Assembly: GCA_011620135.1 (NCBI GenBank)
Contig: WOZS01000011.1
Location: 15,183 to 79,182 of the forward strand
Direction of reading: 5' to 3'
Source of the DNA: Gammaproteobacteria bacterium
Lineage (GTDB): Bacteria; Pseudomonadota; Gammaproteobacteria; WOZS01
Length of the DNA stretch: 64,000 nt
Within the stretch, counting starts at the first letter, position 1; every line of letters begins with the position of its first letter. A program made the position numbers and the translations under genes. This document shows, one piece after another, positions 11,680 through 30,738 of this stretch. Below the pieces are notes generated by a model that saw only the letters and a program-made list of their open reading frames with translations, did no database searches and was not told the origin of the DNA.

Positions 11680-12659
11680 TTGCCGGTCTGGGCCTCGTGG
11701 TCAGCGTGCTACTGGGCGGCTTTGTGCTGTGGCAGCGTCTGAGCCTGGGGGCGGCCCTGGTGCCCTGGATCGGGGCATGGGGTTGTTGCGTTGCCGCAAC
11801 AGCCGGGCTGTGGCTGATGCCACAGGAGGATCATGTCGGGCCAGCCGAGATCCGCTGCCTCGAGCCAGGTGCCACGGGGCGGCTGCAGCTCCGCCTGGGG
11901 CATGGCCTGGTGCATCTGGGATCTACCAAGACAGGTCGCAGCCTGGGGCGCTTTGTCGTGGCCAGCGGAGGGGATGAAGCCCTGGGGAACGCCTTGATGC
12001 AGGCGCAGCCGCATTGTGGCGGGGCTCCCTGGGCCGTTCTCAGGACAAGCGGCCCAAGCCGCGGGGGCGGCCTGTGGCACAGTGCCCGGGTAGAGGACCA
12101 GCAGTTCCTGTGGCTGGATGCCCGGGACTCGACCATTCTCGGCGAGATCTTTCTTGGGCTGCCTGGAGCTTCCTGGAACATCCGCATCGACATGGATCGT
12201 GGCCTCATCGAACAGAGCAGCGCGGCCGTGAAACGGCTTGATGTGTCATTGGGCCGCGGCAGATTGATTCTGTTTGCTCCAGCGTCACCCCAGACCGAGC
12301 TTGCCGTCAGGATGGGTCTTGGCGTGGTGGAGGTGCCAGCCAGCAGCTTGGCTCGCCTGGAGCTGCGCGGCGGCTATCTGCAGGTCGCGCTGGCTGCACC
12401 TGTGCCGGGGTTGCTGCAAGCAGCATCAGGCAGCGTCACGCTGGGTGGTCAGCAGGCCATGCCGGTCAGGGTACTGCTGGAAGGTGGTGCCGTGGTGAGC
12501 CAATCGGCACAGCGCCTGACCCGGCGGGGTTCTGCCTGGGTGGGCGGCCCCCCGGAGGCTGCCCGGTTGCGCATCAGACTTGACCGGGGTAAGGTGGAAT
12601 GGCGGCAAGAGGGCGCCCTGGGGTTGGGCGCAGCATCCGGAGTCCCTTCGGCACCATAA
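11676..12659 (+). CDS. hypothetical membrane-anchored protein
   Basis: 327 aa. Two N-terminal hydrophobic segments followed by a soluble, probably periplasmic, domain. It is the internal in-frame part of the 10995..12659 ORF; the ATG overlaps the permease stop (ATGA). Confidence 0.45.
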   Translation: MIAGLGLVVSVLLGGFVLWQRLSLGAALVPWIGAWGCCVAATAGLWLMPQEDHVGPAEIRCLEPGATGRLQLRLGHGLVHLGSTKTGRSLGRFVVASGGDEALGNALMQAQPHCGGAPWAVLRTSGPSRGGGLWHSARVEDQQFLWLDARDSTILGEIFLGLPGASWNIRIDMDRGLIEQSSAAVKRLDVSLGRGRLILFAPASPQTELAVRMGLGVVEVPASSLARLELRGGYLQVALAAPVPGLLQAASGSVTLGGQQAMPVRVLLEGGAVVSQSAQRLTRRGSAWVGGPPEAARLRIRLDRGKVEWRQEGALGLGAASGVPSAP

Positions 12660-12672
12660 GCCAGGCACCAGG

Positions 12673-12710
12673 TCTGATCCGAAGGGCAACATCTGATCCG
12701 GAGGACAACA
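12673..12710 (+). repeat. 19-bp tandem direct repeat spanning the egtB ribosome-binding site
   Basis: TCTGATCCGAAGGGCAACA followed directly by TCTGATCCGGAGGACAACA (17 of 19 identical), 2 nt before the egtB ATG. Confidence 0.6.
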
Positions 12711-12711
12711 G

Positions 12712-13986
12712 ATGGCAGAACACATATCGAGGAGAGCCTCGGAACAGGCCAGCATCTGCCTGCTGGAGCAGTATCAGGCGGTCCGCAGCCGCTCGACGGC
12801 CCTGTGCGAGCCGCTGGCGGTGGAGGACATGGTCATCCAGGCCATGGTCGAGGTGAGTCCGCCCAAGTGGCATCTGGCGCATACCAGTTGGTTCTTCGAG
12901 ACCTTCCTGCTCAAGCCCCATCTGCCTGACTATCGTGTCTTTCATCCCGGTTTTGCCTTTCTGTTCAATTCCTACTATGAGCAGGTGGGCCCCTTCTTCC
13001 CAAGATCACAACGGGGGCTGATCTCCAGGCCCAGCGTGGCCGAGGTGATGGCCTACAGGCACCATGTGGATACGGCCATGGCGCGCCTGCTCACGCAGGC
13101 CGATGCTGCACGGCTTGCCGAACTGCATCCTGTGCTCCTGGTGGGCCTGAACCATGAGCAGCAGCACCAGGAATTGCTGCTGATGGATGTGAAGTACAAC
13201 TTTTTCATCAATCCCTTGCATCCTGTCTATGCCAGGCCGTCACCAGTGGCAGCTTCCGCCGCGCTGCAGCAGGGGCATGCCAGCTATGAGGGTGGCATTT
13301 TCCCCATCGGCAATGATGGTCACGAAAGCTTTGCCTACGACAACGAGGGGCCGCGTCACCAGGTGGTGGTGGAGCCGTTTCGGCTGGCAAAAGGGCTGGT
13401 GACCTGTGGCGAGTACCTCGAGTTCATCGAGGCAGGGGGGTACCGTGACCCGGTCTTGTGGATGTCCGATGGCTGGGCTGCGGTGCAGCGTCACGGTTGG
13501 TGCGCGCCGCTGTACTGGGAACGGTCCGATGAGGGCTGGCAGGTGTTCACGCTCCATGGCATGCGTGCTGTGGACCCCCAGGCCCCCGTGGGTCACCTGA
13601 GCTGGTATGAGGCCGATGCCTATGCCCGCTTCGCAGGCAGCCGCCTGCCCACAGAGGCCGAATGGGAGCTGGCCGCCACGGCAGACAACGCCCGGCAGGA
13701 GCTGACCGAGACCCAGGCAGATCGCCTCGAGCCCCCTGTTGGGGGCATGCGCTTCTTTGGCGCGCTGTGGCAATGGACGGCAAGCCCCTACATGCCCTAT
13801 CCCCGCTATCGGCCGGTGGCCGGCGCGCTTGGTGAGTACAACGGCAAGTTCATGGCCGGCCAGATGGTGTTGCGGGGCTCGGCCTGCATCACGCCCCAGG
13901 GTCATGCCCGGGTGAGCTATCGCAACTTCTTTCCGTTCGAGGCGCGCTGGATGTACGGTGGCGTGCGCCTGGCCTGGGATGACTGA
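12712..13986 (+). CDS. egtB: ergothioneine biosynthesis sulfoxide synthase EgtB-like (DinB_2 + FGE-sulfatase domains)
   Basis: N-terminal DinB/YfiT-like region with His ligands (HLAHTSWFFE, GLNHEQQHQEL). C-terminal FGE-like domain (GALWQWT, RGSACITP). Directly upstream of an EgtD-like methyltransferase. Confidence 0.7.
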   Translation: MAEHISRRASEQASICLLEQYQAVRSRSTALCEPLAVEDMVIQAMVEVSPPKWHLAHTSWFFETFLLKPHLPDYRVFHPGFAFLFNSYYEQVGPFFPRSQRGLISRPSVAEVMAYRHHVDTAMARLLTQADAARLAELHPVLLVGLNHEQQHQELLLMDVKYNFFINPLHPVYARPSPVAASAALQQGHASYEGGIFPIGNDGHESFAYDNEGPRHQVVVEPFRLAKGLVTCGEYLEFIEAGGYRDPVLWMSDGWAAVQRHGWCAPLYWERSDEGWQVFTLHGMRAVDPQAPVGHLSWYEADAYARFAGSRLPTEAEWELAATADNARQELTETQADRLEPPVGGMRFFGALWQWTASPYMPYPRYRPVAGALGEYNGKFMAGQMVLRGSACITPQGHARVSYRNFFPFEARWMYGGVRLAWDD

Positions 13987-14038
13987 ACGCATCAAGCAAG
14001 CAAAGCAATCAAGAACAACTAACAACTAAGGAGCAAGC

Positions 14039-14995
14039 ATGAACATTCCACAAGCGTTCTACGATCTGGCCCAGCAGGAAGACGACTTCCTGGCCGCAGT
14101 CTGGCAGGGATTGGGCAGTACGCCCAAGACCCTGCCGTGTCGCTTTTTCTATGACCAGCGCGGCAGTGCGTTGTTCGATGCCATCTGCGACCTGGATGAG
14201 TACTATCTCACCAGCACCGAGCAAGCCATCCTGCAGGACTGTGCCGCAGACATCGCAAGCCTTGTCGGCCCCACAGGCGTGCTGCTGGAATACGGCAGCG
14301 GCAGCAGCATCAAGACCCGTCTCCTGCTGGATGCACTCTCGCCACGGCTCTACATGCCCATCGACATCTCCAGGGACCACATGCTGGCAGCCTGCGCGGC
14401 TTTGGGTCGGGATTATCCCCATTTGCAGGTGCGCGCGGTATGCGCCGATTATTCCAAACCCTTTGCGCTGCCTGCGGTGGCGTCCTGGGGGCGCACGGTT
14501 GCCTTTTTCCCAGGCTCCAGTATCGGCAATTTTGACCATCGCGAGGCGGTGGCCTTCCTGCGCCAGGTCTGTCGCCAGCTGGGTTCCGGGGATGCCCTTG
14601 TGCTGGGCGTGGACCTGCAGAAGGACCCAGCCATCCTGGAGGCGGCCTACAACGATGCCCAGGGGGTCACTGCTGCGTTCAACCTGAACCTGCTGGCCCG
14701 CATCAACCGCGAGCTTCAGGCGGATTTCGATCTCGACGCCTTCGAGCACCGGGCCTGGTACAACGCTGAGGCAGCAAGGATGGAGATGCATCTTATGAGC
14801 ACCAAGCCCCAGCATGCGACGGTGGCTGGCCGCATGTTTGCCTTCCGACAGGGCGAGACCATTCATACCGAAAACAGCCATAAGTTCAACCACACCCTCA
14901 TCAACCAGCTGGCCTTCCAGGCTGGCTTGCAGGTCCGCATGGTCTGGCGCGACCCCGCTATGCTGTTTGCCGTGTACTGCCTGACCAAGCCCTGA
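14039..14995 (+). CDS. egtD: L-histidine N-alpha-methyltransferase EgtD-like
   Basis: Contains PCRFFYDQRGSALFDAICDLDEYYLTSTEQAIL and LLEYGSGSSIKTRLLL, characteristic of EgtD and its SAM-methyltransferase relatives. Confidence 0.7.
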   Translation: MNIPQAFYDLAQQEDDFLAAVWQGLGSTPKTLPCRFFYDQRGSALFDAICDLDEYYLTSTEQAILQDCAADIASLVGPTGVLLEYGSGSSIKTRLLLDALSPRLYMPIDISRDHMLAACAALGRDYPHLQVRAVCADYSKPFALPAVASWGRTVAFFPGSSIGNFDHREAVAFLRQVCRQLGSGDALVLGVDLQKDPAILEAAYNDAQGVTAAFNLNLLARINRELQADFDLDAFEHRAWYNAEAARMEMHLMSTKPQHATVAGRMFAFRQGETIHTENSHKFNHTLINQLAFQAGLQVRMVWRDPAMLFAVYCLTKP

Positions 14996-15018
14996 GATGA
15001 GCCAGAGGCTGTGATGGC

Positions 15019-15573
15019 TTAGGGGATCTCCGCAGCACGGCTGGTGGTGGCCAGCTGGGCCACATAGTCGGCGTGCTCCTGCTGCATGCGGAGGTAGACA
15101 GTCCGGCTCGCCTGGTGGAGAGCGCCTTGCAATCCCAGTTGTTCATCGGCCATGCGGACGATCAGACTGTTGGGCCAGCAGGGGAAACGCACGGCCATCA
15201 GCTGCTCTGCGGCCTCCTGCGGGCTTGCGCCCTGGAGCACCATGAACAGCAGGGCGGTAGCCGTGGAGCGGGACATGCCGGCATGGCAGTGCACCAGCAC
15301 ATGGCCCTGGTCGTCCAAGGAGGAACCCACCTCGATCAACCGTTCCACATCTTGAGGCGTGGGTGACATGGCCAGGTTCGGATCGACCACATCGAAGAAA
15401 CTGAAGCGATGGCGTTGGGGGATGCGCTCGAGGATGTCGGGCGTTTCGTAGCCTGGGTCCAGCAGGGAGACCACGGTGGTGGTGGCAGGGGTCAAGCGCT
15501 CTGCCAGTTCCGCAAGCCCGCAGATGGCAAGGCGCTGCCACAGGGGCAGCCTGGCTGATGGTATGGTGGACAT
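15019..15573 (-). CDS. protein-tyrosine/dual-specificity phosphatase-like protein
   Basis: Catalytic P-loop HCHAGMSRST (CX5R). Start chosen at MSTIPSARL; the ORF extends to 15633. Confidence 0.6.
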   Translation of the reverse strand: MSTIPSARLPLWQRLAICGLAELAERLTPATTTVVSLLDPGYETPDILERIPQRHRFSFFDVVDPNLAMSPTPQDVERLIEVGSSLDDQGHVLVHCHAGMSRSTATALLFMVLQGASPQEAAEQLMAVRFPCWPNSLIVRMADEQLGLQGALHQASRTVYLRMQQEHADYVAQLATTSRAAEIP

Positions 15574-15717
15574 GCCGCCTATGATACCACCGTTGCAACC
15601 CGTGCATTGCCATACCATTTCGGTATCACGCATGCCTTCGGGTCGTTGTGACAGGGCCAGGGAGCAACGGGAAAAAGAGGATGCATCAGAAAAGCTAAGA
15701 AAAGCACGTGGAACTGG

Positions 15718-15978
15718 TTGCGCTTATTTGGGGCAGGGTGTTTCGGTATGTTGGGCACCTCCCTGGCGCTGGCCGAAGGCTATGTGGACTGGCCGGACGA
15801 CACCAAGGTGATCGATGTGAGCGCCAGTGCGGGCATCATCCATGTGATCGGTCAGGATGAGGACGATGCGCTATATACCCTGGCCATTCCCGAGAGCCTG
15901 GCTCATTCGCTCAAGGTGCAGGCCATGCCCAAGGGGCCCCTGAATCGCCATGAAGGGGTTTTTCGACTGGCCCAGTGA
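15718..15978 (+). CDS. small secreted repeat protein (copy 1, with signal peptide); probably frameshifted
   Basis: N-terminal signal-like segment MRLFGAGCFGMLGTSLALA. Carries the repeat YVDWPDDTKVIDVSASAGIIHVIGQDEDDALYTLAIPE. Confidence 0.4.
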   Translation: MRLFGAGCFGMLGTSLALAEGYVDWPDDTKVIDVSASAGIIHVIGQDEDDALYTLAIPESLAHSLKVQAMPKGPLNRHEGVFRLAQ

Positions 15979-16093
15979 TACCAGGATCATCGGTGCTGCA
16001 GCCGATGAGGGGGTATTGTTCGTGGTGGGCCAGGAAGGCAAAGATGCGCTGTATATCGTGCGCATCACAGAAGATAAAACAGATCACCGCTAG
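15950..16093 (+). pseudogene. second copy of the same ~38-aa repeat in the +1 frame (likely the 3' part of a frameshifted gene)
   Basis: MKGFFDWPSDTRIIGAAADEGVLFVVGQEGKDALYIVRITE is about 50% identical to repeat 1. The frame changes across a GGGGTTTTT run. Confidence 0.35.
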
Positions 16094-16191
16094 CAGGAAC
16101 GCAGGAAGCATCATGTGCCCATCCCATGTCGCGACCGCCATCCTCACCGTTTTGCCTTTAGCGTTTTACCGTGGCGCAGAGCACGTGCGCG

Positions 16192-16713
16192 TCATGCCCT
16201 GACATGGCGGCCCATGGCCGCCAGGATGCCCAGCAGTAGGCGTTCGGGCGGCGGTGGACAGCCGGGAATGAATACATCCACGGGAATCACCTGGTCCACG
16301 CCGCCCAGGCTCGCATAGCTCGTCCCGAACAGCCCGCCGTTGCAGGCACAATCGCCTGCTGCGATCACCAGGCGCGGCTCGGCCATGGCATCCCAGGTGC
16401 GCAGCAAGGCCTCGGCCATGTGTCTCGAGACCGGGCCTGTTACCAGCAGGGCATCGGCATGACGAGGCGAGGCCACGAATCGCACCCCGAAGCGTTCCAG
16501 GTCATGGTAGGGGTTTTCCAGGGCCCCGATCTCCAGCTCGCAGCCATTGCACGAACCGGCGTCCACCTGCCGGATGGCAAGGCTTGCCCTGCACTGGGCA
16601 TCCAGCATGCGCCTGACCGCGATGCCGGCCTGTTCCAGGGCATGGGCATCCAGTTGCGGTGGGGCGTCGGTGCAGGTTGTGTTGCTGAGGATGGTGCGCA
16701 GGATGCGGATCAT
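16192..16713 (-). CDS. NuoB-like small subunit of Ehr/group-4-hydrogenase-like complex
   Basis: Fe-S ligand motifs GSCNGCE, GDCACNGG and PGCPP. This is the last gene of a six-gene complex-I-like cluster. Confidence 0.8.
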   Translation of the reverse strand: MIRILRTILSNTTCTDAPPQLDAHALEQAGIAVRRMLDAQCRASLAIRQVDAGSCNGCELEIGALENPYHDLERFGVRFVASPRHADALLVTGPVSRHMAEALLRTWDAMAEPRLVIAAGDCACNGGLFGTSYASLGGVDQVIPVDVFIPGCPPPPERLLLGILAAMGRHVRA

Positions 16714-16719
16714 GGCTGC

Positions 16720-18258
16720 TCAGAGATCACAGCCACTGTAGGATGCATTGACAGACTTGTTGCATACCGGAAAATCGGCGACAATGTTGCCGCCCACCAG
16801 CACCTCCAGCGCCGGCCAGGCAAACCAGCTTGGGTCCCTGGGAAAGAACCGCGCCACGTTGCCCTGGTCATCCAGGCGCACATGGGTGACGATCTCGCCG
16901 CGAAAGCCCTCCACCACACCCACACCTTCTGCGGCCATACCCGGGGGCCACGGCTCCTGGATGGGCCCTGGCGGGAGGTCATCCAGCAAGGCGTCCAGCA
17001 GCCTGACAGAGGCGCTGATCTCGGCCATGCGCACCTGCAGGCGTGCGGCCACATCGCCGCGTTGCTGCAGGCAGGGCTGGACAGGATGGCGGTCGTAGGG
17101 CGGCTGGGGGCGATCATGGCGCACATCCAATGACAGGCCACTGGCCCGGGCCAGATAGCCGCTCACACCAAGGCCGCGGGCGGCCACGGTGGAAAGCCGG
17201 CCTGTATTGAGCAGCCGATCCTGCAGGGGTGGGTAGTCCGTGAGGATGGGGGCGATATTTTGCCAGCGCTGCAGCATGTCGCGGTGGTTGGCGCGCAACA
17301 GCCTGATGTGCCCTGCATCGAGGTCGACCGCGACACCGCCTGGGGCGATGCAATCCATGAGCAGCCGATGGCCGAAGATGCCGTGCTGGCAACGCAGCCA
17401 TTCTTCCCGGAGCCTGCTGCATTGCATCTTGGCAAAGGCAAAACCCACGTCGCCACAGATGGCGCCCACATCGCCGAGGTGGTTGGCGATACGCTCGCGC
17501 TCGGCCAGGAAGCCGCGCAGCACGACCCCTCGGGCTGTGGGGGCAATGCCCAGGGCGCATTCCAGCGCCAGGGCTGCAGCCCAGCTGTGGGCGACGGTCG
17601 AATCGGCGCTGACGCGACTGGCAAGCGGGAGCAGTGCGGCGGGTTTTCTGCCACAGGCCAGCCATTCGATGCCCTTGTGCACGTAACCCAGGCGTTCCTC
17701 GAGCCCCAGGATGTCTTCGCCTGCCACAGAAAAGCGGAAGTGGCCAGGCTCGATGATGCCGGCATGCACCGGCCCCACGGGAATCTCATAGACACCTTCG
17801 CCACTGAAGGTGGCAAAGGGATAGCGGTCCCGGCCCCGCTCCTGTGGCGTCACAGGGGTGCGCAGGGGTGCTTCGTCGGCCTTCCAGGCGCCATGACGCG
17901 TCCATGGTGGATTGCACTCGCCAAAACGCACCCCCCACAGGTCATGGGCGTGGCGTTGCATCCTGTCTGCCGCCGGATACCAGCGCGCCCAGGAAGGCAG
18001 CCCCATCGTGCCATCAAGAGGCGTGGCGCGCAGCAGGACATACCAGCCATCCCGGGCGAGGCAGGCGTTGACCTCCAGCTTCTCGTCTCGCACATCGGCC
18101 CACAGGCCGGCGAAACGCAGCTGCCGCACGCTGGCTTCTGGAGCCAGCTGTGCCCAGTGTTCCGGGGCCACCGTCACAAGCAGTATCCGATCCTGAAGCA
18201 TCCGCGAAGACGTGCCCCATGCGCTCAGTTCCTGCAGCCAAGCTGGTGAGTTGTTCAT
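16720..18258 (-). CDS. fused NuoC/NuoD-like large subunit (HyfG/HycE-like) lacking the NiFe-binding CxxC
   Basis: 512 aa from the ATG at 18258, ATGA-coupled to the upstream gene. The L1 site reads AICGDVGFAF, whereas real group-4 hydrogenases have RxCGxCxxxH. The C-terminus lacks DPCxxCxxH. Confidence 0.75.
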   Translation of the reverse strand: MNNSPAWLQELSAWGTSSRMLQDRILLVTVAPEHWAQLAPEASVRQLRFAGLWADVRDEKLEVNACLARDGWYVLLRATPLDGTMGLPSWARWYPAADRMQRHAHDLWGVRFGECNPPWTRHGAWKADEAPLRTPVTPQERGRDRYPFATFSGEGVYEIPVGPVHAGIIEPGHFRFSVAGEDILGLEERLGYVHKGIEWLACGRKPAALLPLASRVSADSTVAHSWAAALALECALGIAPTARGVVLRGFLAERERIANHLGDVGAICGDVGFAFAKMQCSRLREEWLRCQHGIFGHRLLMDCIAPGGVAVDLDAGHIRLLRANHRDMLQRWQNIAPILTDYPPLQDRLLNTGRLSTVAARGLGVSGYLARASGLSLDVRHDRPQPPYDRHPVQPCLQQRGDVAARLQVRMAEISASVRLLDALLDDLPPGPIQEPWPPGMAAEGVGVVEGFRGEIVTHVRLDDQGNVARFFPRDPSWFAWPALEVLVGGNIVADFPVCNKSVNASYSGCDL

Positions 18259-19700
18259 GGCAGCGGGATGCTGATCCGGATGGCCGCATTCTGCAGCACA
18301 TGGAGGATGGGTGGCGGCATGAGCAGGCCCAGGATGACCACCAGGCCCAGCTGGAGCCATGAGGGCCACAGGGCGATGGTCTCCTTGGTTTGCATGGTCG
18401 TCGCAGCAGGCGCCTCGCCCAGGACCATGGGCTGAACCTGGCGCAGCAGGGCGGCAAAGGCAATCACCATGCAAAGCGCCAGCGACGCCGCAAGCCAGGG
18501 CTGATGGGCGGCAGCGCTGGTCAGGATGAGCAACTCGCTCACGAAAAGACCAAACGGTGGCAATCCAGCCATGGCGGCGGCTGCAGCCATGAAGGCCCAG
18601 CCCAGACGGGGGTCGAGGTGCAGCAGGCCGCGTATCCGCTCCGTGGAACGGCTGCCCGCTTTCCTGGTGACGGCCCCCACGATGATGAACAACGCCGCCT
18701 TACCCAGGCCATGGCACAAGAGATGCAGCAAGGCGGCGAAGGTGGCAAGCGGTGTACCCAGGCCCAGGGCGAAGGTGGCAATCCCCATGTGCTCGATGGA
18801 GGAATAGCCAAAAAGGCGCTTGATGTCCCGTTGCCGCAGCAACAGCAAGGCGGCCAGCAGTGTGGAGGCGAGGCCGAAGGCCAGCAACAGCATGTTCGGG
18901 ATATCGTGGCTGGCGGAGGTGGCCAGGGCCGCATCAGTGAGCATCTTGATGCGCAGCAGGGCATAGAGCGCCACATTGAGCAGCGTGCCCGAGAGCATGG
19001 CGAGCAGCGGGGCAATGGCCGCCGAATAGGCATCGGGCAGCCATTGGTGTAGCGGCACCAGGCCCGCCTTGGTGCCATAGCCTACCAGACAGAAGACGAA
19101 GGCTATGCCCATCACGGTGGGATCGAGATGGCTGGCTGCCGCATGGAGCGCTGGCCAGTTCATGGCCTGCTGCGGGTCATCCAGGGCTTGGTGGGCGGCA
19201 AAGGCCACCAGCACGGTGCCGAACAGCGCCTGGGCAATGCCCACGCCACATAACACGAAATACTTCCAGGCCGCCTCCACCGCCTGGGGAGTGCGGTTGA
19301 AGGCCACCAGCAGCACGGTGGCCAGCGTGGCTCCTTCCAGCGCCACCCACAGGATGCCGATGTTGCTGCAGGCCAGCGCCAGCTGCATGGTGCACGAAAA
19401 GGCCTGGAACAAGGGATAGAACAGGGCCGCACCACCCTTGCCGGCCGGCTCCAGGAAGTAGGGGCAGGACAGCGCCACGGTGAGGGTGATGAACCCTGTG
19501 GTCAGCAGAAAAGGCTTATTGATGGCATCCAGCATGAGTACTGTGCCGGCATGCGCCGGACCCAGCACAGCCAGGAGGGCGGCGATACAAGCCAGTGCAC
19601 TCGCCCAGAGGTTGATCTGCGCCTGATGCTGGCGATGGAAGGCCAGCAGGATGGCCGCTGCACCCGGGATCAGCACAGCAAGCCACAGGCTCATGGCCAT
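18255..19700 (-). CDS. NuoN/NuoM (HyfF/MrpD)-like antiporter-type membrane subunit
   Basis: 481 aa polytopic. Contains the conserved GLVPLHQWLPDAY motif and a FGYSSIEHMG block typical of complex I N/M subunits. Confidence 0.75.
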   Translation of the reverse strand: MAMSLWLAVLIPGAAAILLAFHRQHQAQINLWASALACIAALLAVLGPAHAGTVLMLDAINKPFLLTTGFITLTVALSCPYFLEPAGKGGAALFYPLFQAFSCTMQLALACSNIGILWVALEGATLATVLLVAFNRTPQAVEAAWKYFVLCGVGIAQALFGTVLVAFAAHQALDDPQQAMNWPALHAAASHLDPTVMGIAFVFCLVGYGTKAGLVPLHQWLPDAYSAAIAPLLAMLSGTLLNVALYALLRIKMLTDAALATSASHDIPNMLLLAFGLASTLLAALLLLRQRDIKRLFGYSSIEHMGIATFALGLGTPLATFAALLHLLCHGLGKAALFIIVGAVTRKAGSRSTERIRGLLHLDPRLGWAFMAAAAAMAGLPPFGLFVSELLILTSAAAHQPWLAASLALCMVIAFAALLRQVQPMVLGEAPAATTMQTKETIALWPSWLQLGLVVILGLLMPPPILHVLQNAAIRISIPLP

Positions 19701-20383
19701 TGTTTCTCCACAACGCCGCTTTCCTCGGTCAAGGCGCTCAGGCGATCCACATCCATGGAGTCGATGTTTTCCCGGATGTGCAGGAAAAAGATGCCAAAGA
19801 GCACCATGGCCAACAGCACATCAAAGGCAATGCCCAGCTCCACCACCAGCGGCATGCCTCCTGTGGCCGCCACGGCAGCGAGAAACAGGCCATTTTCCAT
19901 GGCCATGAACCCCACCACCTGTGCCATGGCCTGGTGGCGCACCACCATCATCAAAAGACCCAGCAGCACCACGGCGAGACTGACCATGATCACGCTGCCA
20001 TGGATAGACGAGGCCATCTGCGCAAGTGGCAGCACCACCCAGTAGCTGAACACCACCAGTGCAGCACCTGAAAAGAGGACGAGTCCCTGGTGGTCGAGCA
20101 CCTCAGCGCTGCGGTGCAACGCGAGGCGGTCCAGCTGCCGGTCCAGCATCCATGGGATGCACAGCCCCTTGAGGGCGAAGGTGAGCAGCGCCGAGACCAG
20201 CAACTCGCCACGGCCATCCACGATGCCGCGCAGCAAGGCCACCAGGGCCACACACATTCCTTGGATGGCACAGGCATAGATGACCGGCACAAGACGCGTC
20301 TGGCTCAGCAGCACGAACGAGGTGAGCAGCACCAAGCCCGCCAGGAAGGCCACGCCCTGCTCGGCAAGCGGCATACTGGTCAT
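19691..20383 (-). CDS. HyfE-like (NuoK-related) membrane subunit
   Basis: 230 aa, hydrophobic. C-terminal NuoK-like helix GFMAMENGLFLAA. Confidence 0.65.
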   Translation of the reverse strand: MTSMPLAEQGVAFLAGLVLLTSFVLLSQTRLVPVIYACAIQGMCVALVALLRGIVDGRGELLVSALLTFALKGLCIPWMLDRQLDRLALHRSAEVLDHQGLVLFSGAALVVFSYWVVLPLAQMASSIHGSVIMVSLAVVLLGLLMMVVRHQAMAQVVGFMAMENGLFLAAVAATGGMPLVVELGIAFDVLLAMVLFGIFFLHIRENIDSMDVDRLSALTEESGVVEKQWP

Positions 20384-21348
20384 GGATTGTGTTCCAGGAT
20401 GACATGGCTGAATAAGCCAAGCACCGCCAGCAGGAAGGCCAGGTTGAGCATGCCCGGGGCGCGAAACAGGCGCATCTTGGGCAGCAGTGCTTCGGTCAGG
20501 GCCAGCACCACGCCCAGGGCTGCCAGTTTGCCCATCAGGCAGAGCAATGCCAGGGCCAGCATGGCTGGGCTGGCATGGTCGGCCAGCCCCCAGGGGGCAA
20601 ACAGATCAGCCAGCAGGATGCCGTAGAACAAAAGTTTCATGTGGCCGCTCCATTCCACCAGCGCCAGGTGGCGGCCGCTCCACTCCAGCACCATGGCCTC
20701 ATGCACCATGGTGAGCTCGAGATGAGTGGTGGTGTTGTCGGCGGGCAGGCGGCCATTTTCCACGCCGGCCACCATCAAAAGGGCCAGCAGTGTGAACAGG
20801 AACGAGGGCCGCAGCATCATTCCGGTATCCAGCAGATGGCCCACCAGGACCGCAAGATTGCTGCTGTGGGCGGTCATGGCGAGACTGAACAGGCCAAGCA
20901 GCAGCGTGGGTTCGGCCAGGGCGCTCAGCATCAGCTCCCGGCTTGCACCCAGTCCCCCGAAGGCCGTGCCCGGGTCCAGGGAGCCGATCATCAAGGCCAC
21001 GCGCGCCAGGGTCAGGAAGCCTGTCAGCACCAGGACATCCGTGACGCTGGCCAGCGGTGTTTGCACGGTGAGCATGGGCAAGGCCGAGGAAGCCAGCAGC
21101 GTGGCGGCGAACATCACATAGGGGGCCATGCGAAACAGCCATGAGGCGGTATGGGGCACCACCGGTTCCTTGGCGAACAGGCGGCGCAGGTTGCGCCATG
21201 GCTGCAGGGGCGAAGGGCCACGGCGGTTCTGCAGCCGGGCACGCAGCATGTCCACCCAGCCATTGAGCAGCGGTGCCGCCAGGGCGAATAGCAGGATCTG
21301 CAGCGGCAGCATGGCCCACTCCAGGGCGTTCACCAGGACATCACCCAC
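20380..21348 (-). CDS. NuoH (HyfC/HycD)-like membrane subunit
   Basis: 322 aa. The N-terminal region RLQNRRGPSPLQPWRNLRRLFAKEPVVP is NuoH-like. Confidence 0.75.
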   Translation of the reverse strand: MGDVLVNALEWAMLPLQILLFALAAPLLNGWVDMLRARLQNRRGPSPLQPWRNLRRLFAKEPVVPHTASWLFRMAPYVMFAATLLASSALPMLTVQTPLASVTDVLVLTGFLTLARVALMIGSLDPGTAFGGLGASRELMLSALAEPTLLLGLFSLAMTAHSSNLAVLVGHLLDTGMMLRPSFLFTLLALLMVAGVENGRLPADNTTTHLELTMVHEAMVLEWSGRHLALVEWSGHMKLLFYGILLADLFAPWGLADHASPAMLALALLCLMGKLAALGVVLALTEALLPKMRLFRAPGMLNLAFLLAVLGLFSHVILEHNP

Positions 21349-23357
21349 AGCAGGACCAGCAATGTGCCCAGTGAAAAACCCAGGTACAGTCGCACCCGTC
21401 CCGACTGTAGACGGGCTGCGTGGCGCGAGAGGGACATGACAAACCGGGCCACCGGGGCATAGAGCAAGTCCCAGGTGCGATCAGCGATCTCCAGATGATA
21501 GCGCCGCCCCTGGGGGCTGCCGAGACGCTCATGGATCGACAGCAATCCGGCAAAGACCTGGCGCAGCGGCATAGCCAGGGCTGCAGGCGTGATCTGCATG
21601 CGTGCCGTGGGCGGCCCCAGTCCGCAGGCCCAGGGCTGGACCCGCCTGAGCGCGGCGCGTTTTCTGGTGTGCAACAGGGCGGCTGTACACAGGGCAATGA
21701 TCATGATCACGGCAAGGACCGCCAGCGGTGCATAGCTGGCCTGGGTTGCCGTCACAGGAGTGATGATCAGTGCCGAGGCCGTCTGCACGGCAGGGTGGTG
21801 CAGCAATGCCACTGTGACCTGGTTCAGCATCATGAGCAGCAGACCGGGAAACAGGCCGGAGAGCACACACAACGCGGCCAGCATACCCTGGGCAAGCAGC
21901 ATGGCGCGCGGCGCTTCCCTGGCGCGCCGCGCCGGGCGGCTGCGGGCCTGGCCCAGGAAGGCGCTGGCAAAGAGCCGCAGCAGGCAGGCCGTGCCCAGGG
22001 CCGTGGTCAGCGCAAGGCAGGCGGCGGCAAGCGGGATGAGGCTGCGCAGGATACCCTGCTCCATCTGCCAGGACTGCAGCGCTGCCTGGAAGAGCAGCCA
22101 CTCCGAGGCAAAGCCATTGAGCGGCGGGATGGCAGCCAGGCCCAGGCAACCCAGCAGGAACAGACCGCCGCTGGCGGGCATGCGTCGCAGCAACCCGCCC
22201 ATGCGCCCCAGGTCGTAGGTGTCGCAGGCCTGTTGGATGGTGCCAGCACCCAGGAACAAGAGCGCCTTGAGCAGGGCGTGGTTGAGCACATGCAGCAGGG
22301 CAGCTCCCAGGGCCATGGCGGCCAGCATGGCATGTCCAGTGGTGCGGTAGAGCAAGGCGAGCCCCAGGGCCATGGTGACAAGCCCCAGATTCTCGATGGA
22401 AGAACAGGCCAGCACCCGCTTGATGTCCTGCTGCACCAGCGCCAGCACCACGCCCAGCACCATGGAAAGGGCTCCTGTGGTGATCATGGTCACGGCAAGC
22501 CCAAGGGCCGATTGCACAGACACCAGGTCGAAGCACAAGCGCACCATGCCGTAGATGGCTATCTTGAGCATCACAGCAGACATCAAGGCCGAGATGTGCG
22601 ATGGGGCCGCTGGATGGGCCAGCGGTAGCCAGACATGCAGTGGGACAAGCCCTGCTTTGGCGGCGAAGGCAAGACAGGCGAGCGCCAGGGCCGCCATGGC
22701 GCTCGCTGAGGCAGGAGCCGCACGCCATTGAGCAAAATCAGGCCCGCCTGCCCCATGCGCCAAAAGGCCAAAGGCCAGCAGCAGGACAAGGGCTCCCATA
22801 TGGGCCACCAGCAGGTAGATCAATCCGGCCTGCCGGCTGGCACTCTCCTCATGGTGTTGGATCACCAGCAGGTACGAGGCAAGCGCCATGCCCTCCCAGC
22901 CCAGCATGAAAGGGAAGGCGTGAGCGGCAAGCAGCACCAGGATCATGCTGGCCACGAAAAAACCCGTGGCCACCCCCGGGCGCCTGAAGCCTGTCTCTAT
23001 ATGGAGCAGGTAGGGTCTGGCATAGAGGGCGATGGTGCTCACAACCGCGCCCAGCGGCAGCAGGAAGACGGCACTCAGTGGATCCAGGATCAGGTGCCAT
23101 GGAATGACGCCAAGGGTCATCACGACGGCATCGCTGGGGCCACCCAGCAGCAACCACAGTCCGGCGGCCAGACTGCACAGCCCGCTTGCCCCCAGGAGTT
23201 GCAGCGCGAGCCGTTCCCAGGAGCGCGGGCCTGCGGCACTCAATCCGGCGGCCATGGCAAGCCCCATGGCCAGCATGGCGAGTCCAAGGGGTGTCATGCC
23301 AAGGTATGCATCATTTTTCAAGGTACCCAGCCAGAATGGCGCTAGCCAGAATAGCAT
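21330..23357 (-). CDS. NuoL (HyfB/HycC/MrpA)-like antiporter-type membrane subunit
   Basis: 675 aa. Motifs WEGMALASYLLV, GLVPLHVWLPLAHPAAPSHISALM and SSIENLG. A likely internal start is at MTPLGLAML. Confidence 0.75.
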   Translation of the reverse strand: MLFWLAPFWLGTLKNDAYLGMTPLGLAMLAMGLAMAAGLSAAGPRSWERLALQLLGASGLCSLAAGLWLLLGGPSDAVVMTLGVIPWHLILDPLSAVFLLPLGAVVSTIALYARPYLLHIETGFRRPGVATGFFVASMILVLLAAHAFPFMLGWEGMALASYLLVIQHHEESASRQAGLIYLLVAHMGALVLLLAFGLLAHGAGGPDFAQWRAAPASASAMAALALACLAFAAKAGLVPLHVWLPLAHPAAPSHISALMSAVMLKIAIYGMVRLCFDLVSVQSALGLAVTMITTGALSMVLGVVLALVQQDIKRVLACSSIENLGLVTMALGLALLYRTTGHAMLAAMALGAALLHVLNHALLKALLFLGAGTIQQACDTYDLGRMGGLLRRMPASGGLFLLGCLGLAAIPPLNGFASEWLLFQAALQSWQMEQGILRSLIPLAAACLALTTALGTACLLRLFASAFLGQARSRPARRAREAPRAMLLAQGMLAALCVLSGLFPGLLLMMLNQVTVALLHHPAVQTASALIITPVTATQASYAPLAVLAVIMIIALCTAALLHTRKRAALRRVQPWACGLGPPTARMQITPAALAMPLRQVFAGLLSIHERLGSPQGRRYHLEIADRTWDLLYAPVARFVMSLSRHAARLQSGRVRLYLGFSLGTLLVLLWVMSW

Positions 23358-23408: not shown

Positions 23409-25223
23409 CTATTTGGTCAGGTTGGTGTTCAATAACAACAAGTCACAGCGCTGGCCGAGCCCCTTGAGCAGTTTGGTGTCGGTTTCCGGTGAGCGGGCGC
23501 CGAGGCAGAGGCTGGACTGGGCAAGACGGGCTGCCTTGCTCGAGGCAAACCGCAGTGTGAGCCGAAAGCCGCTTGCGGCCATGCCCGGATCGTTCAGCGC
23601 CATGGCCACATCGGTGCGCTTGACAACCATGGCCTCGATTGTGCTGGGCGGCTCCGGGGCAAGCAGGACCAATAGTCTGTCTTGCTCAGAATCGTGAAGT
23701 GGCAGATAGCCTGTAATGCTGAGCGTGTCATCTTGTAGCAACATGGTTTCCACCTGGCCGCCAAGGCCATTGCTGAGGGTGCCAGGGTACTGTTCTGGCA
23801 TGCCGGTGAAGACCAATGTCTTGAACGACATGCTGGCAGGTGGCAGGGTGACAAGCCCCAGCGGAGCGATGCGGTGGCTGATCAGCAGGCTTTGAGCATA
23901 GGCGTTGTAGATGCGCAGCCGGAAGGCTTCCTGGATCTCGGCCAGGGCCTGTACGGGGTAGCGAAACAGCAGGCCGCCTGGGTCTCCCGAGGCAAACCGT
24001 GTTGCTCCATCCACAAGTGCTGCGTGTCGCGCCCTGGCCAGGGGCAGGTTGACTGTCCATGAGAACAGGCAGAAGCCCAGCGCCAGCAGCACGGCCAGCA
24101 ATTGCGGGAGTGGCCGTAGTAAAACAATCCGCCAGCGGACACACAGTCCAAGCCAGACCACGGCCCCCAGCAGCGCGCTGTAGAAGGCATAGCGCGGGGA
24201 CAGGGCCTGCTCCAGGCCGAGCGTGCCGCGCCCGGCTGCGGTCATGGCCGCGGTCAGAAGCCCGAAGAGGATGAAGGCGGGGAACGGGGTGCATGGCTCG
24301 CGGGCCCTTGGTGATGAAGGCAGGCATGCCATCAAGCCCAGCGCCAGCACCACCACACCCCATGCCCAGGCTATCCTTTGTTGGCTGAAGATCGCCCCGC
24401 AAAACAGCGCGACGTAGCCCAGGAACTGGCCGGGATGGCGCAACGTGGCCTCAGGGGAGCTGGCTTCCGGCGGCGTGAAGTAGCCTTGGAAAAACCACCA
24501 CCACAACAGCAGGGTGATCAGCGCTCCTGCCATGAAGGTCATGCCTCTGCGGATGTGCAAGACGGTGAGGAGCACGGGCACGAAAAGCCCGTTGGCCTGC
24601 GAGCCCACCGCCAGCGCCGCCAGCAGGTAGGCCGGGATGAGATGGCCCCGGGCCGAGCACAGCAGCGCGGCGAGACCAAGCAGCATCACCTGGTAGTTGG
24701 ACAGCGCCGCCATGGCCCACAGCGCACTCTCCCAGGCGGCGGGCTGGAACAGCAGCAAGGCACAGGGCAGCAGCGCCAGGAGTTTCCTGTTGGCTGAAAA
24801 CATGGGCGGCAGCGCTTTGTAGAGCACCAGCAGCACTGCAGGCAAGGCGGCGTTGCCCAGCAGCGTGAGCCGTTGCAGGTTGACGGCCCCAAAAAGCCCC
24901 CAGTCGGCCAGGGCGACAAGTCTTGTCAGCACGATGCGATGGTTGCTGTTCTGGTGAATCAGCCAGTGGTAGGCCTCATGGAGGTTTTGGGCCTTGGCGA
25001 GGCGCGCCAGCGAGCCCAGGATGGCGCCAAAGTCGTCCATGATGGGGAAGTTGACGCTCAAGTTCAGGATGAAGACGAGATAGGCGGCCATGGGCAAGAG
25101 CAGCGCAGCCCAAAGCATGGCTGACTTGCCGGCCTCGCCTAGCTTTGGATGCCAGATGACCACAGGAATATCGGTATCAGATCTCGCATGGCCTCTTGAC
25201 CCAGCTTGGTGGATAGCGGGCAT
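23409..25223 (-). CDS. polytopic membrane protein, candidate GT-C family glycosyltransferase (arabinofuranosyltransferase-like)
   Basis: 604 aa. About 400 aa with 10 or more predicted TM helices, then a roughly 200-aa soluble C-terminal domain. A DD motif (FPIMDDFG) follows TM1, as in GT-C enzymes. A probable start is at MLWAALLL (25121). Lies 51 nt upstream of the Ehr cluster and downstream of the DPA-like genes. Confidence 0.45.
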   Translation of the reverse strand: MPAIHQAGSRGHARSDTDIPVVIWHPKLGEAGKSAMLWAALLLPMAAYLVFILNLSVNFPIMDDFGAILGSLARLAKAQNLHEAYHWLIHQNSNHRIVLTRLVALADWGLFGAVNLQRLTLLGNAALPAVLLVLYKALPPMFSANRKLLALLPCALLLFQPAAWESALWAMAALSNYQVMLLGLAALLCSARGHLIPAYLLAALAVGSQANGLFVPVLLTVLHIRRGMTFMAGALITLLLWWWFFQGYFTPPEASSPEATLRHPGQFLGYVALFCGAIFSQQRIAWAWGVVVLALGLMACLPSSPRAREPCTPFPAFILFGLLTAAMTAAGRGTLGLEQALSPRYAFYSALLGAVVWLGLCVRWRIVLLRPLPQLLAVLLALGFCLFSWTVNLPLARARHAALVDGATRFASGDPGGLLFRYPVQALAEIQEAFRLRIYNAYAQSLLISHRIAPLGLVTLPPASMSFKTLVFTGMPEQYPGTLSNGLGGQVETMLLQDDTLSITGYLPLHDSEQDRLLVLLAPEPPSTIEAMVVKRTDVAMALNDPGMAASGFRLTLRFASSKAARLAQSSLCLGARSPETDTKLLKGLGQRCDLLLLNTNLTK

Positions 25224-27239: not shown

Positions 27240-27998
27240 CTACAGACGCAGGCGAATGAACAAAGGTTCCGGGATGGCGCGCACCACCAGCATGATCCAG
27301 CGCCAGAACCACGGGGCATAGACCACCCCGCCCCGGCGGCCGGCCATGGCTTGCGCGATGGCACGACCCACCTGCTCTGGCTGAGCCCACAGCGCATTCT
27401 TGCTGAGGTCTTTTGTCATGGGCGAGTCCACGAAACCGGGCTTGACCGTGACCACCCTGACTCCCTTGGCCTGGAGCTGGTTGCGCAAGCCGGAGAGAAA
27501 GGCCGCAAGACCCGCCTTGGCGGCGCCATAGACATAGTTGGACTGCCGGCCCCGGTCGCCCGCCACAGAGGAGATGCCCACCAGAACGCCATGACCCTGG
27601 CTTGCCATGTGGTTGGCGGCCAGCTGCAGGATCGTGCAGGCACTGAGCAGGTTGGTCTCCAGCGCCTGGCGCAATGCCTTCATGTCGCTCTGGCACCTGG
27701 CCTGGTCGGGCAGGTCGCCATAGGCCAGGATGAGGCCATCGAGGCCGCCCAGGTGTGCGAGGGCGGCATCCAGCATGGCCTGGTGCATGGTCCAATCGCT
27801 GCAATCCATGATGTACGTTCCGGGCTCATGACTGCTGCGCAGCGCAAGGTCGGCTGCCACCAGGGCAAGGCGTTCCTTGTTGCGGGCCACGAGAAAGAAA
27901 CGGGCGTCCTGCTGGGCGAGGATTCTTGCCGTAGCCTCTGCGATGGCCGATGTGGCCCCGACGATCACGATACGCTTCACGCGCTCACCCGGCGCCAC
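27240..27998 (-). CDS. short-chain dehydrogenase/reductase, DprE2-like (decaprenylphospho-2-keto-ribose reductase-like)
   Basis: Rossmann motif GATSAIAEATAR and a YGAAKAGL catalytic Tyr/Lys. About 252 aa like Rv3791. Immediately downstream of a DprE1-like gene. Confidence 0.65.
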   Translation of the reverse strand: MAPGERVKRIVIVGATSAIAEATARILAQQDARFFLVARNKERLALVAADLALRSSHEPGTYIMDCSDWTMHQAMLDAALAHLGGLDGLILAYGDLPDQARCQSDMKALRQALETNLLSACTILQLAANHMASQGHGVLVGISSVAGDRGRQSNYVYGAAKAGLAAFLSGLRNQLQAKGVRVVTVKPGFVDSPMTKDLSKNALWAQPEQVGRAIAQAMAGRRGGVVYAPWFWRWIMLVVRAIPEPLFIRLRL

Positions 27999-30735: not shown

Positions 30736-30738
30736 GAT

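Follow-up and report, generated by a model that had tools for sequence, protein, structure and literature searches.

The 64,000-nucleotide (nt) stretch of gammaproteobacterial DNA analyzed here (contig WOZS01000011.1; hereafter, the window) carries six consecutive, co-directional open reading frames (ORFs) on its minus strand, at positions 16192-23357. We have very little doubt that this module is a functional, divergent gammaproteobacterial member of the complexes named Ehr (for energy-converting hydrogenase-related), specifically of the Hyq type with six structural genes (HyqB/C/E/F/G/I). Its products would almost certainly build a minimal complex-I-like machine, in which four membrane subunits with proton-channel residues are joined to a peripheral arm of two proteins. 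That arm very probably holds one N2-type [4Fe-4S] cluster beside a former Ni-Fe pocket, and we are highly confident that the pocket is lined by the invariant Asp219 and Gly509 together with the near-invariant Ser217, Ser/Thr220, and Ser506 of the large subunit. The genes run in the order HyfB/NuoL-like, HycD/NuoH-like, HyfE-like, HyfF/NuoN-like, fused NuoC/D-like large subunit, and NuoB-like small subunit. An earlier note on this DNA, made without database searches, had given this gene list and order with their coordinates, all of which are borne out by the ORF positions and by Pfam and NCBIfam assignments:

21330-23357, minus strand: ehrA/hyqB (A), NuoL/HyfB-like antiporter-type membrane subunit (PF00361, E = 2e-50)
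20380-21348, minus strand: ehrB/hyqC (B), NuoH/HycD-like membrane subunit (PF00146, E = 2e-31)
19691-20383, minus strand: ehrC/hyqE (C), HyfE-like small membrane subunit (NF008556, hydrogenase 4 membrane subunit, E = 8e-22)
18255-19700, minus strand: ehrD/hyqF (D), HyfF/NuoM/N-like antiporter-type membrane subunit (PF00361, E = 3e-48)
16720-18258, minus strand: ehrL/hyqG (L), fused NuoC/NuoD-like large subunit (PF00346, E = 4e-37, plus a weak N-terminal PF00329)
16192-16713, minus strand: ehrS/hyqI (S), NuoB/HycG-like small subunit of 173 amino acids (aa) (PF01058, E = 2e-32)

All six reading frames are intact. Several of the genes had been described as ATGA-coupled, which is true of ehrB/ehrC and ehrD/ehrL and possible for ehrC/ehrD (start 19694). 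A GTGA overlap is possible for ehrA/ehrB, where GTG 21333 is the probable start of ehrB and would overlap the ehrA stop; this and the ehrC/ehrD overlap each use a second in-frame start. The longest ORF for ehrA spans 675 aa, and the real start may be TTG 23321 or ATG 23297; alignment with the counterpart in the related locus L170 begins at window position 23312. ehrL (512 aa) starts at ATG 18258 and is separated from ehrS by 6 nt. A scan for sigma-70 promoters and terminators scored no better than on shuffled sequence.

Measured against NCBIfam equivalog cutoffs, the module misses the HyfB, HyfE, HyfF, and NuoD models, and only ehrS passes a model, that of a NuoB subfamily (NF005012; 134 bits, cutoff 116). 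For ehrA, the best NCBIfam model is HyfB NF005086, at 654.8 bits slightly below the cutoff of 667. ehrD reaches at most 489.8 bits with the HyfF models (cutoff 543), and ehrC, for which a Pfam search gave no match, is matched by NF008556 alone, at 78.1 bits and under the cutoff of 136. ehrB is 35% identical to HycD.

The central evidence comes from the large subunit. Group 4 [NiFe]-hydrogenases carry an L1 motif, RxCGxCxxxH, with two cysteines, and an L2 motif, DPCxxCxxR/H, followed by a cleaved C-terminal extension; ehrL has neither. The ligand positions were mapped with phmmer against HycE (7z0s_E), with MAFFT alongside E. coli HycE, HyfG, and NuoCD, and in a 120-sequence alignment, and these three independent alignments concur on all four positions. 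The segments concerned are these:

17587-17616, minus strand: L1 equivalent, ehrL residues 215-224, RVSADSTVAH, opposite HycE RVCGICGFAH
16723-16764, minus strand: L2 equivalent, the ehrL C terminus, CNKSVNASYSGCDL, opposite HycE IIGSLDPCYSCTDR plus a 32-aa extension
17434-17463, minus strand: AICGDVGFAF, ehrL residues 266-275, a four-helix-bundle segment with no metal site

In L2, NASYSGCDL and then a stop codon face HycE DPCYSCTDR. The four ligand positions have thus changed from Cys to Ser, Ser, Ser, and Gly. ehrL terminates at the end point of NuoD and has no protease-cleaved C-terminal extension. The earlier note was therefore right that all Ni-Fe cysteines are lost and that no C-terminal DPCxxCxxH is present, and the large-subunit alignment it had proposed, run here with HycE, HyfG, and NuoCD, places no Ni-Fe cysteine at any ligand position. 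It erred in setting AICGDVGFAF at the position of RxCGxCxxxH, a misalignment: that segment pairs with HycE GLACHFTGFD and NuoCD STFIQDVGAM, and the real L1 is RVSADSTVAH.

The best solved relative of ehrL is HycE (7z0s_E; E = 6e-46), with 28-32% identity. An AlphaFold2 model of ehrL (predicted template modeling [TM] score 0.84; predicted local distance difference test [pLDDT] below 50 at the pocket-forming residues 135-193 and 489-512) finds HycE as its best Foldseek match (TM 0.82), followed by fused NuoCD chains. The hydrogenase “canopy” is kept in the form of Glu170, which is the proton-relay residue, His165/173, and Arg453, and so is the beta1-beta2 loop motif EPGHFR. What now occupies the ligand site itself? 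Counts over the large subunits of 78 six-gene relatives are as follows:

Position 217: Ser in 73/78
Position 218: Gly in 78/78; Ala in the window alone
Position 219: Asp in 78/78
Position 220: Ser or Thr in 76/78
Position 506: Ser in 75/78
Position 509: Gly in 78/78

The comparison yields a diagnostic signature, R-x-S-G-D-S/T ... S-Y-S/A-G-x-D-L. Cysteines elsewhere in the protein are more variable, being present at positions 268, 499, and 505 in 47/78, 48/78, and 27/78 of these relatives, respectively; at position 510, a Cys in the window, Cys is outside the five commonest residues. A replacement metal site formed by other conserved cysteines was considered and rejected, as none is conserved across the six-gene subtype. 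At codon 218 of ehrL (17605-17607), the window encodes Ala, against Gly in all 78 six-gene relatives and in 92 of 99 Cys-less representatives. This residue, flanked by the positions of what were once the two N-terminal Ni-Fe cysteines, is the counterpart of the quinone-binding Tyr in alignments with NuoD.

The small subunit keeps its cluster cysteines, as had been noted earlier. C55 and C58 (16540-16551), C122 (16348-16350), and C152 (16258-16260) align with the proximal [4Fe-4S] ligands of HycG, HyfI, and NuoB and are invariant in 64-65 of 65 relatives, so ehrS has the small subunit with proximal cluster that is found in group 4 [NiFe]-hydrogenases. The membrane arm is equally well preserved at its channel residues. 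In ehrA, E155, K234, and K364 are invariant in 58/58 relatives, and the position in transmembrane helix 12 is Gln, as in HyfB and HycC. E146, D204, E211, and E222 of ehrB are invariant in 45/45 relatives, while E122, K211, N242, and E389 of ehrD match the HyfF pattern and are invariant in 66/66.

Which other subunits might the window supply? With E. coli proteins as tblastn queries, no homologue of hyfA/hycB, hyfH/hycF/nuoI, hypA-E, hycI, HycH, or HyfJ was found in the 64-kb window, nor any of NuoA, NuoE, NuoF, NuoG, NuoI, NuoJ, or NuoK, and the ferredoxin motif CxxCxxCxxxC occurs in none of its reading frames. The earlier note's remark that hyfA/hyfH-type subunits are missing thus holds for the whole window by tblastn and motif scan alike. 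The combination that it had said would imply a real hydrogenase, a hyp operon plus hyfA/hyfH in the locus, is likewise absent from the 64 kb.

The same architecture recurs in many lineages. All 120 of the closest homologues of ehrL end in DFPVCNKSVN[GA]SYSGxDL. A scan of species-representative genomes, one genome per species, returned at least 600 matches, and none among the matches listed exceeds 53% identity to ehrL; no exact match to the window large subunit is on record. The 80 genome loci that we fetched come from Alpha-, Beta-, and Gammaproteobacteria, Nitrospirae, and Mariprofundus, and essentially all of those long enough keep the order A-B-C-D-L-S. When B, C, D, L, and S are compared with an 89%-identical metagenomic relative, their ratios of nonsynonymous to synonymous substitution rates (dN/dS) lie at 0.07-0.18 (0.07 for ehrC, against the relative L087), so the module genes are functional and under purifying selection. 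Since the Cys-less state is a family-wide trait under such selection, it is no local accident, and the Ni-Fe pocket, to judge from these sequences, is remodeled rather than decayed.

The module is evidently mobile, residing often on plasmids, chromids, and islands. It is present on 64 plasmid or chromid records in PLSDB, 19 of which are predicted to be conjugative. On plasmid 2 of “Ca. Methylocalor cossyra” (L173), transposase genes flank it, and an additional 103-aa ORF separates the D gene from the L gene.

How close do true hydrogenases come to these proteins? Cluster representatives at 50% identity, searched exhaustively with HMMER, include 5559 relatives, the best 150 of which were typed for cysteines. 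About 100 of these 150 are Cys-less, typically reading S-[STEN]-S-G at the four positions, while 20 have all four cysteines (CCCC), at 35-40% identity and in the same context (INKSF-ELCYAC). The CCCC relatives are true group 4 enzymes and probably belong to the group 4f/“Ehf” clade; Ehr itself has been placed next to group 4f (PMC10284858). The Cys-less and CCCC groups have over 50 conserved positions in common, including Glu170, His165/173, and Arg453, and the sole family-wide switches between them are the four Cys, a gained Asp219 (90%), and Pro476. A rough neighbor-joining tree, made with no support values, does not separate a single loss of the cysteines from multiple losses.

One Cys-containing relative has an extra 114-aa gene with two [4Fe-4S] motifs (2x[4Fe-4S]) between L and S. 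After 80 metagenomic loci had been fetched, the occurrence of such ferredoxin-like genes was tabulated by type of large subunit:

Cys-type large subunit, 19 loci: ferredoxin-like gene present in 17, absent from 2
Cys-less large subunit, 116 loci: ferredoxin-like gene present in 29, absent from 87

The idea that loss of the Ni-Fe cysteines is strictly coupled to loss of a NuoI/HyfH-like gene is refuted by the 29 Cys-less loci that keep one and the 2 Cys-type loci that lack one, though the trend is strong. The Cys-less loci in which L and S are separated by a 2x[4Fe-4S] ferredoxin-like gene are L104, L105, L110, L114, and 25 more metagenomic loci; the Cys-containing loci without one are L109 and L141. 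The survey thus reveals at least three architectures (Cys-less with the ferredoxin-like gene, Cys-less lacking it, and rare Cys-containing forms lacking it), so that the name “Ehr” covers at least three different assemblies. The window module is of the most reduced subtype, both Cys-less and ferredoxin-less.

The Ehr concept is reportedly due to Coppi and to Marreiros et al. 2013, according to papers that cite them. The earlier note's view that the module fits these complexes agrees with their published definition (PMC6349859, PMC10284858, PMC12342949, PMC7894505): genes for group-4-like large and small subunits without Ni-Fe cysteines stand beside genes for NuoL/Mrp-like, NuoH-like, and HyfE-like membrane subunits (here genes A-D). 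In Geobacter sulfurreducens (GSU0739-45), EhrA, C, L, and S have been named and subunits detected in the proteome (PMC7894505). Ehr has also been reported in Margulisbacteria and relatives (PMC6349859), in ammonia-oxidizing archaea (PMC10432482), and in about half of Nitrospira genomes, where it is not induced by H2 (PMC10284858, PMC12342949).

The Hyq literature runs parallel. In Azorhizobium caulinodans, hyqRBCEFGI comprises a regulator and six genes and is claimed to encode an “endo-hydrogenase” (Ng et al. 2009, PMC2650096; Sprecher et al. 2012, PMC3357923). Orthologues occur in Rhizobium, with R. leguminosarum bv. viciae named, Bradyrhizobium, and Azospirillum (Sprecher et al. 2012, PMC3357923), and a review also refers to “hyq” (PMC4758237). 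HyqG lacks both CxxC motifs, and HyqI has Cys-55, Cys-58, a third Cys, and Cys-152 (PMC2650096, PMC3357923). Work from the Ludwig laboratory found that hyq is NifA dependent and that its deletion slows diazotrophic growth only (PMC2650096, PMC3357923). In a delta-hupSL strain at <1 uM O2, ~80% of the large H2 evolution depended on hyq, even without NifK (PMC3357923). From this in vivo mutant physiology, the authors deduced a bidirectional H2:ubiquinone oxidoreductase (PMC2650096, PMC3357923).

What, then, might such a complex do? The best explanation as a whole, which we offer tentatively, is that this Hyq-type Ehr member acts as a minimal ion-translocating redox module. As to mechanism, we lean, with a little more reserve, toward a reversible ion-translocating oxidoreductase that would not be a Ni-Fe hydrogenase. 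On the face left bare by the absent NuoI/HyfH, a soluble carrier of low potential (ferredoxin or flavodoxin) would dock directly and exchange electrons with the cluster. The cluster would in turn exchange electrons with a substrate in the Asp/Ser pocket, most plausibly a membrane quinone, and the resulting change in pocket protonation would pass via EhrB to the two antiporter-like subunits. Running forward, the complex would add to the ion gradient; running in reverse, it would use the gradient to drive production of low-potential reductant. In this scheme we infer the donor, the acceptor, the direction, and the ion moved. Because a sister Cys-less subtype keeps the 2x[4Fe-4S] gene (29 loci), a Cys-less pocket should still take electrons. 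The invariant cluster cysteines speak for a redox function that has been kept and the invariant channel residues for pumping, and both the Ehr subunits seen in the Geobacter proteome (PMC7894505) and the missing H2 response of Nitrospira Ehr (PMC12342949) would be compatible with a reductant device linked to the gradient. The nif-linked growth defect of hyq mutants would be a problem of reductant supply, and the module would suit lithoautotrophs that need reverse electron flow.

Six points weigh against this redox proposal. (i) The Tyr and His that bind the quinone head group in complex I are absent, their positions being Ala218 and Ile169, so a quinone would have to bind differently. (ii) In the Cys-less versus CCCC comparison, none of the changes seen would give the Cys-less group a substrate tunnel of its own. 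(iii) The related loci show no conserved redox partner beside the module, be it ferredoxin, flavodoxin, or another. (iv) The ~80% of microaerobic H2 evolution credited to hyq, even in a nifK background (PMC3357923), is accounted for only indirectly. (v) The AlphaFold2 model is unreliable at the pocket itself, with pLDDT <50. (vi) Acid induction in Methylocystis and the adjacency of SulP genes, both described below, fit a role in ion homeostasis at least as well.

That last point leads to the main rival, which we consider doubtful: a redox-gated or redox-independent Mrp-like H+/Na+ transporter. Here, the cluster and the Asp/Ser pocket would be a sensor, a gate, or structural elements, and the complex would serve pH or ion homeostasis or energize SulP (bicarbonate/sulfate) carriers. 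The full conservation of the membrane arm speaks for such a transporter, as do the presence of one cluster only and the lack of an input wire or recognizable substrate ligands. Set against this, Mrp antiporters work without a NuoB/NuoCD arm, and an antiporter would have no need of one. The absolute conservation of the cluster cysteines and of the Glu/His/Arg canopy exceeds the usual structural need, and the additional 2x[4Fe-4S] subunit of the related Cys-less subtype speaks for a genuine flow of electrons.

Gene neighborhoods bear on the same question. Among the 48 loci with enough flanking sequence, a SulP gene lies within 3 kb upstream of the module in 9 and downstream in 2 more; by our own estimate, the chance of finding SulP in a 3-kb flank is ~1%, and the lineages concerned are not independent. 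They comprise Methylococcales, Thiobacillus/Rhodocyclaceae, Muproteobacteria, and unassigned metagenomic contigs, and every SulP-linked locus is of the Cys-less, ferredoxin-less subtype. The module-linked SulP proteins fall into two subfamilies that are ~22% identical to each other, and in Thiobacillus L041 the SulP gene ends 7 nt before ehrA. In L041, L096, and L112, SulP is joined by a 352-377-aa protein that matches the CsoSCA catalytic domain (PF20686, E = 1.6e-5), and RuBisCO with CbbQ/CbbO adjoins the module in Thiomonas L070 and Thiobacillus L077. These inorganic-carbon-type neighbors lie at the following places:

L041:2453-4576 and 12157-13215; L096:10486-13584; L112:10766-13837
L070:6374-10902; L077:3857-4417 and 13361-18700; upstream flanks of L008, L014, L016, L019, and L023

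The flanking genes, whether SulP, CsoSCA-like, hexapeptide-repeat (possibly gamma-carbonic-anhydrase-like), or RuBisCO with CbbQ/CbbO, are on the same strand as the module; their presence in several autotrophs and methanotrophs suggests a connection with the handling of inorganic carbon or pH. A gene for a small helix-turn-helix (HTH) regulator also recurs beside the module: strict tblastn finds it in 8/86 loci, clustering in 16-19.

For the Mrp-like transporter, the adjoining SulP and CsoSCA-like genes of some loci are favorable evidence, as is the beta-carbonic anhydrase beside hyfBCEFG on a genomic island of A. caldus (PMC3826726). So is the “group 4f [NiFe]-hydrogenase” of Methylocystis, a probable homologue that was induced 16-23-fold at pH 5 with no H2 detected (bioRxiv 10.1101/2025.08.29.672306). 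Its published motifs, PLHQIPVGP...ANGExVVRL...AARVS, match Cys-less alphaproteobacterial sequences (L058, L172), so that it is probably no Ni-Fe hydrogenase, consistent with the undetected H2. The SulP link is, on the other hand, missing from the window and from most loci. Our literature search found no report of a link between SulP and the module, and a paper on inorganic carbon in A. ferrooxidans mentions no hyf or hydrogenase genes next to SulP. The association, from which the window itself is excluded, fits either an ion pump that energizes transport or a part in CO2/HCO3-/pH balance. The narrower claim that the six-gene subtype is the energizing partner of SulP/carbonic-anhydrase carbon uptake in autotrophs and methanotrophs seems to us unlikely.

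Could the Hyq authors nonetheless be right about hydrogen? We think it distinctly unlikely that the module is a non-canonical H2:quinone oxidoreductase facing the cytoplasm, with a site other than the four-Cys Ni-Fe center, which would oxidize H2 at moderate O2 and evolve it at <1 uM O2. The window architecture is orthologous to A. caulinodans hyqBCEFGI, the canopy residues Glu170 and Arg453 are kept, and the H2 output of A. caulinodans survives in a nifK mutant (PMC3357923). Against these stand the lack of any conserved Cys at or near the site (the counts at 268, 499, and 505 given above), the window's retention of only two of the three HyqG cysteines, with Ala505 for the third, and the absence of a maturation peptide and, within the 64 kb, of any hyp or hycI gene. 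By analogy with complex I and formate hydrogenlyase (FHL), it is hard to see how one cluster and one pocket could accommodate an H2 site as well as a quinone site. The evidence for H2 turnover is in vivo only, and its authors call the site speculative and a Ni,Fe center “uncertain, if not unlikely” (PMC2650096, PMC3357923); H2 does not induce Ehr in Nitrospira (PMC12342949), and H2 went undetected in Methylocystis.

The earlier note's statement that this is not a true hydrogenase, with its function left as unknown, accords with the majority view and conflicts with the hyq genetics, which claim H2 uptake and evolution (PMC2650096, PMC3357923); sequence alone would leave the matter unsettled. 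It is, in our view, improbable that H2 is made or activated at the Asp219/Ser pocket with the single [4Fe-4S] cluster and possibly an unrecognized cofactor. Were this true, the pocket would represent a new O2-compatible class of hydrogenase, one that hundreds of aerobic proteobacteria and Nitrospira would carry.

Very improbable is an FHL-like arrangement (FDH-Ehr), in which the module would be the membrane and hydrogenase-like part of a complex fed by a formate dehydrogenase (FDH) encoded elsewhere. E. coli Hyc and Hyf are the closest characterized relatives by sequence, Margulisbacteria and Saganbacteria have been proposed to possess an FDH-Ehr complex (PMC6349859), Geobacter has higher levels of Ehr subunits when on formate (PMC7894505), and formate dehydrogenases were co-induced with the Methylocystis homologue (bioRxiv 10.1101/2025.08.29.672306). 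But the window has no homologue of FdhF, NuoE, NuoF, or NuoG, and only one of ~160 related loci has one within 8-10 kb, which disfavors such a complex for this clade. Nor does the window encode a HycB/HyfA or HycF/HyfH connector that could wire an FDH to the small subunit, and making H2 from formate would be impossible without Ni-Fe. Finally, there is next to no chance that the module is a decaying group 4 remnant or that its Cys loss is an alignment or sequencing artifact, for although the large subunit is only 28-32% identical to HycE and the HyfB, HyfE, HyfF, and NuoD scores fall under their cutoffs, this reading is refuted by the conservation data, with six intact and coupled frames, dN/dS of 0.07-0.18, the same substitutions invariant across hundreds of species, and three alignments in agreement.

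The genes around the module in the window (egtB/egtD, a dual-specificity phosphatase, a 604-aa membrane protein, and typA) are not conserved around it elsewhere, and the downstream ones are common only to its closest relatives. The host branches deeply within the Gammaproteobacteria: no named species has a TypA more than 70% identical to its own. The remaining features are these:

23409-25223, minus strand: 604-aa polytopic membrane protein, 51 nt upstream of ehrA, no family match
12712-14995, plus strand: EgtB-like (DinB_2 + FGE-sulfatase) and EgtD-like (histidine-specific methyltransferase) genes, side by side
15688-16090, plus strand: split match to a 135-136-aa secreted protein, in two reading frames
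27240-31770, minus strand: short-chain dehydrogenase/reductase, FAD-binding oxidase, UbiA-prenyltransferase/HAD fusion, and LPG_synthase_TM genes in a run beyond typA

The 604-aa protein was considered as a seventh subunit and rejected: it has no family match, and in the 82%-identical L170 its homologue lies ~2.3 kb off, with genes between. Together with the 27240-31770 set, it resembles what we take to be a polyprenyl-phosphate sugar pathway of the DprE1/DprE2/UbiA type with a large membrane glycosyltransferase. The EgtB-like and EgtD-like genes are an ergothioneine biosynthesis pair, found beside the module only in its closest relatives. In L087, L088, and L170, an intact 135-136-aa secreted protein with two ~45-aa repeats is encoded between ehrS and the phosphatase gene; the split of its match in the window is a frameshift or a sequencing error. 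Window positions 10001-12000 stand out in composition (GC 0.68, GC skew 0.16, AT skew -0.38) and coincide with a 539-aa ORF, without a family match and downstream of an ABC-transporter ATPase gene, that is probably a very hydrophobic permease.

Why does the family matter? Ehr/Hyq complexes are among the most widespread uncharacterized relatives of complex I, given the at least 600 matches in the species-representative scan. They are routinely misannotated as “hydrogenase 4,” “formate hydrogenlyase,” or “NADH-quinone oxidoreductase subunit C,” and ecological studies based on genomes sometimes score them as H2 metabolism; an example is the “group 4f hydrogenase” of Methylocystis, with its AARVS motif. 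Their function bears on three problems: (i) the supply of low-potential reductant in aerobic lithoautotrophs and diazotrophs, (ii) the management of pH and inorganic carbon in these organisms, and (iii) the evolution of complex I from hydrogenases. The gains of the present comparison are a correct ligand map, the signature, a subtype scheme with or without the ferredoxin-like subunit, and context leads (SulP, carbonic-anhydrase-like, and RuBisCO genes). The interest of the module lies in the contested chemistry of the Ehr/Hyq family and not in any novelty of the system.

How does the module compare with better-known machines? With complex I, it shares a homologous core, the NuoCD fold (TM 0.72-0.79 over the E. 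coli and Aquifex aeolicus NuoCD chains), N2-type cluster ligands, and the Glu/Lys chain of the antiporter-like subunits. It differs in lacking NuoA, E, F, G, I, J, and K, in having a loop and canopy that are hydrogenase-like, and in reading Ala218 for the quinone-binding Tyr (R-x-D/E-Y) and Ile169 for the His of the beta1-beta2 loop in ehrL. HyfE is considered to stand in for part of NuoJ/K (Sprecher et al., PMC3357923). E. coli hydrogenase-4 (HyfA-J) and the hydrogenase-3 FHL (HycB-G, 7Z0S) provide the best sequence and fold match for each subunit, along with the same pattern of channel residues in the HyfB-, HyfF-, and HycD-like subunits and the EPGHFR loop. Unlike them, the window has no HyfA/HycB, HyfD, HyfH/HycF, HyfJ/HycH, HycI, or FdhF and no Ni-Fe cysteines, and HycE, unlike ehrL, bears a 32-residue C-terminal extension that is cleaved by HycI. 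The nearest CCCC hydrogenases have the C-terminal context INKSF...Y..xD, the loop IIEPGHFRF, and the same membrane genes in common with the window, but they keep CCCC, lack Asp219, and in 17 of 19 cases have a 2x[4Fe-4S] gene between L and S.

NDH-1MS (CupA) and DAB (DabAB) couple a PF00361 proton-channel protein to inorganic-carbon handling. Some Ehr/Hyq loci adjoin SulP, CsoSCA-like, hexapeptide-repeat, or RuBisCO/CbbQO genes, which is a lead and not a classification and does not extend to the window, where SulP, CsoSCA-like, hexapeptide-repeat (gamma-carbonic-anhydrase-like), and RuBisCO queries found no homologue (CupA and DabA were not used as queries). The Geobacter-type Ehr, by its description, resembles the module in its group-4-like L and S subunits lacking Ni-Fe ligands and in its NuoL-, NuoH-, and HyfE-like subunits.

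More precise is the match to Hyq, for which the sequence comparison was made via pRL11 of R. johnstonii (R. leguminosarum bv. viciae) 3841. There are differences. The window has neither a hyqR-type gene (no homologue of the 85-100-aa HTH gene occurs anywhere in it) nor a nif context, and in the 51-nt spacer upstream of ehrA no sigma-54-like element is seen by eye, no sigma-54 or NifA-box scan having been made. Identity to the alphaproteobacterial proteins is only ~40-45%. Of the three “completely conserved” cysteines of HyqG (Cys-258, -491, and -497), the window has counterparts in C268 and C499 but Ala505 for the third, and it has Ala218 for Gly. There are likenesses as well. On pRL11, an HTH regulator is followed by six genes in the same order as in the window; its 504-aa large subunit, 41.7% identical to that of the window, reads RTSGDSTVAY ... 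CNKSFNCSYSGHDL with Cys 259/491/497, and its small subunit has Cys 55/58/122/152. Hyq and the window thus have in common six structural genes in the order B-C-E-F-G-I without HyfA, HyfD, or HyfH, a NuoC/D fusion of ~504-512 aa that lacks CxxC motifs and ends in ...CNKS.N.SYSGxDL, and the small-subunit Cys 55/58/122/152. Ehr is an umbrella term, within which the window represents the Cys-less form without a ferredoxin-like subunit; as the Ehr/Hyq kind has already been named, this copy adds nothing categorically new to it.

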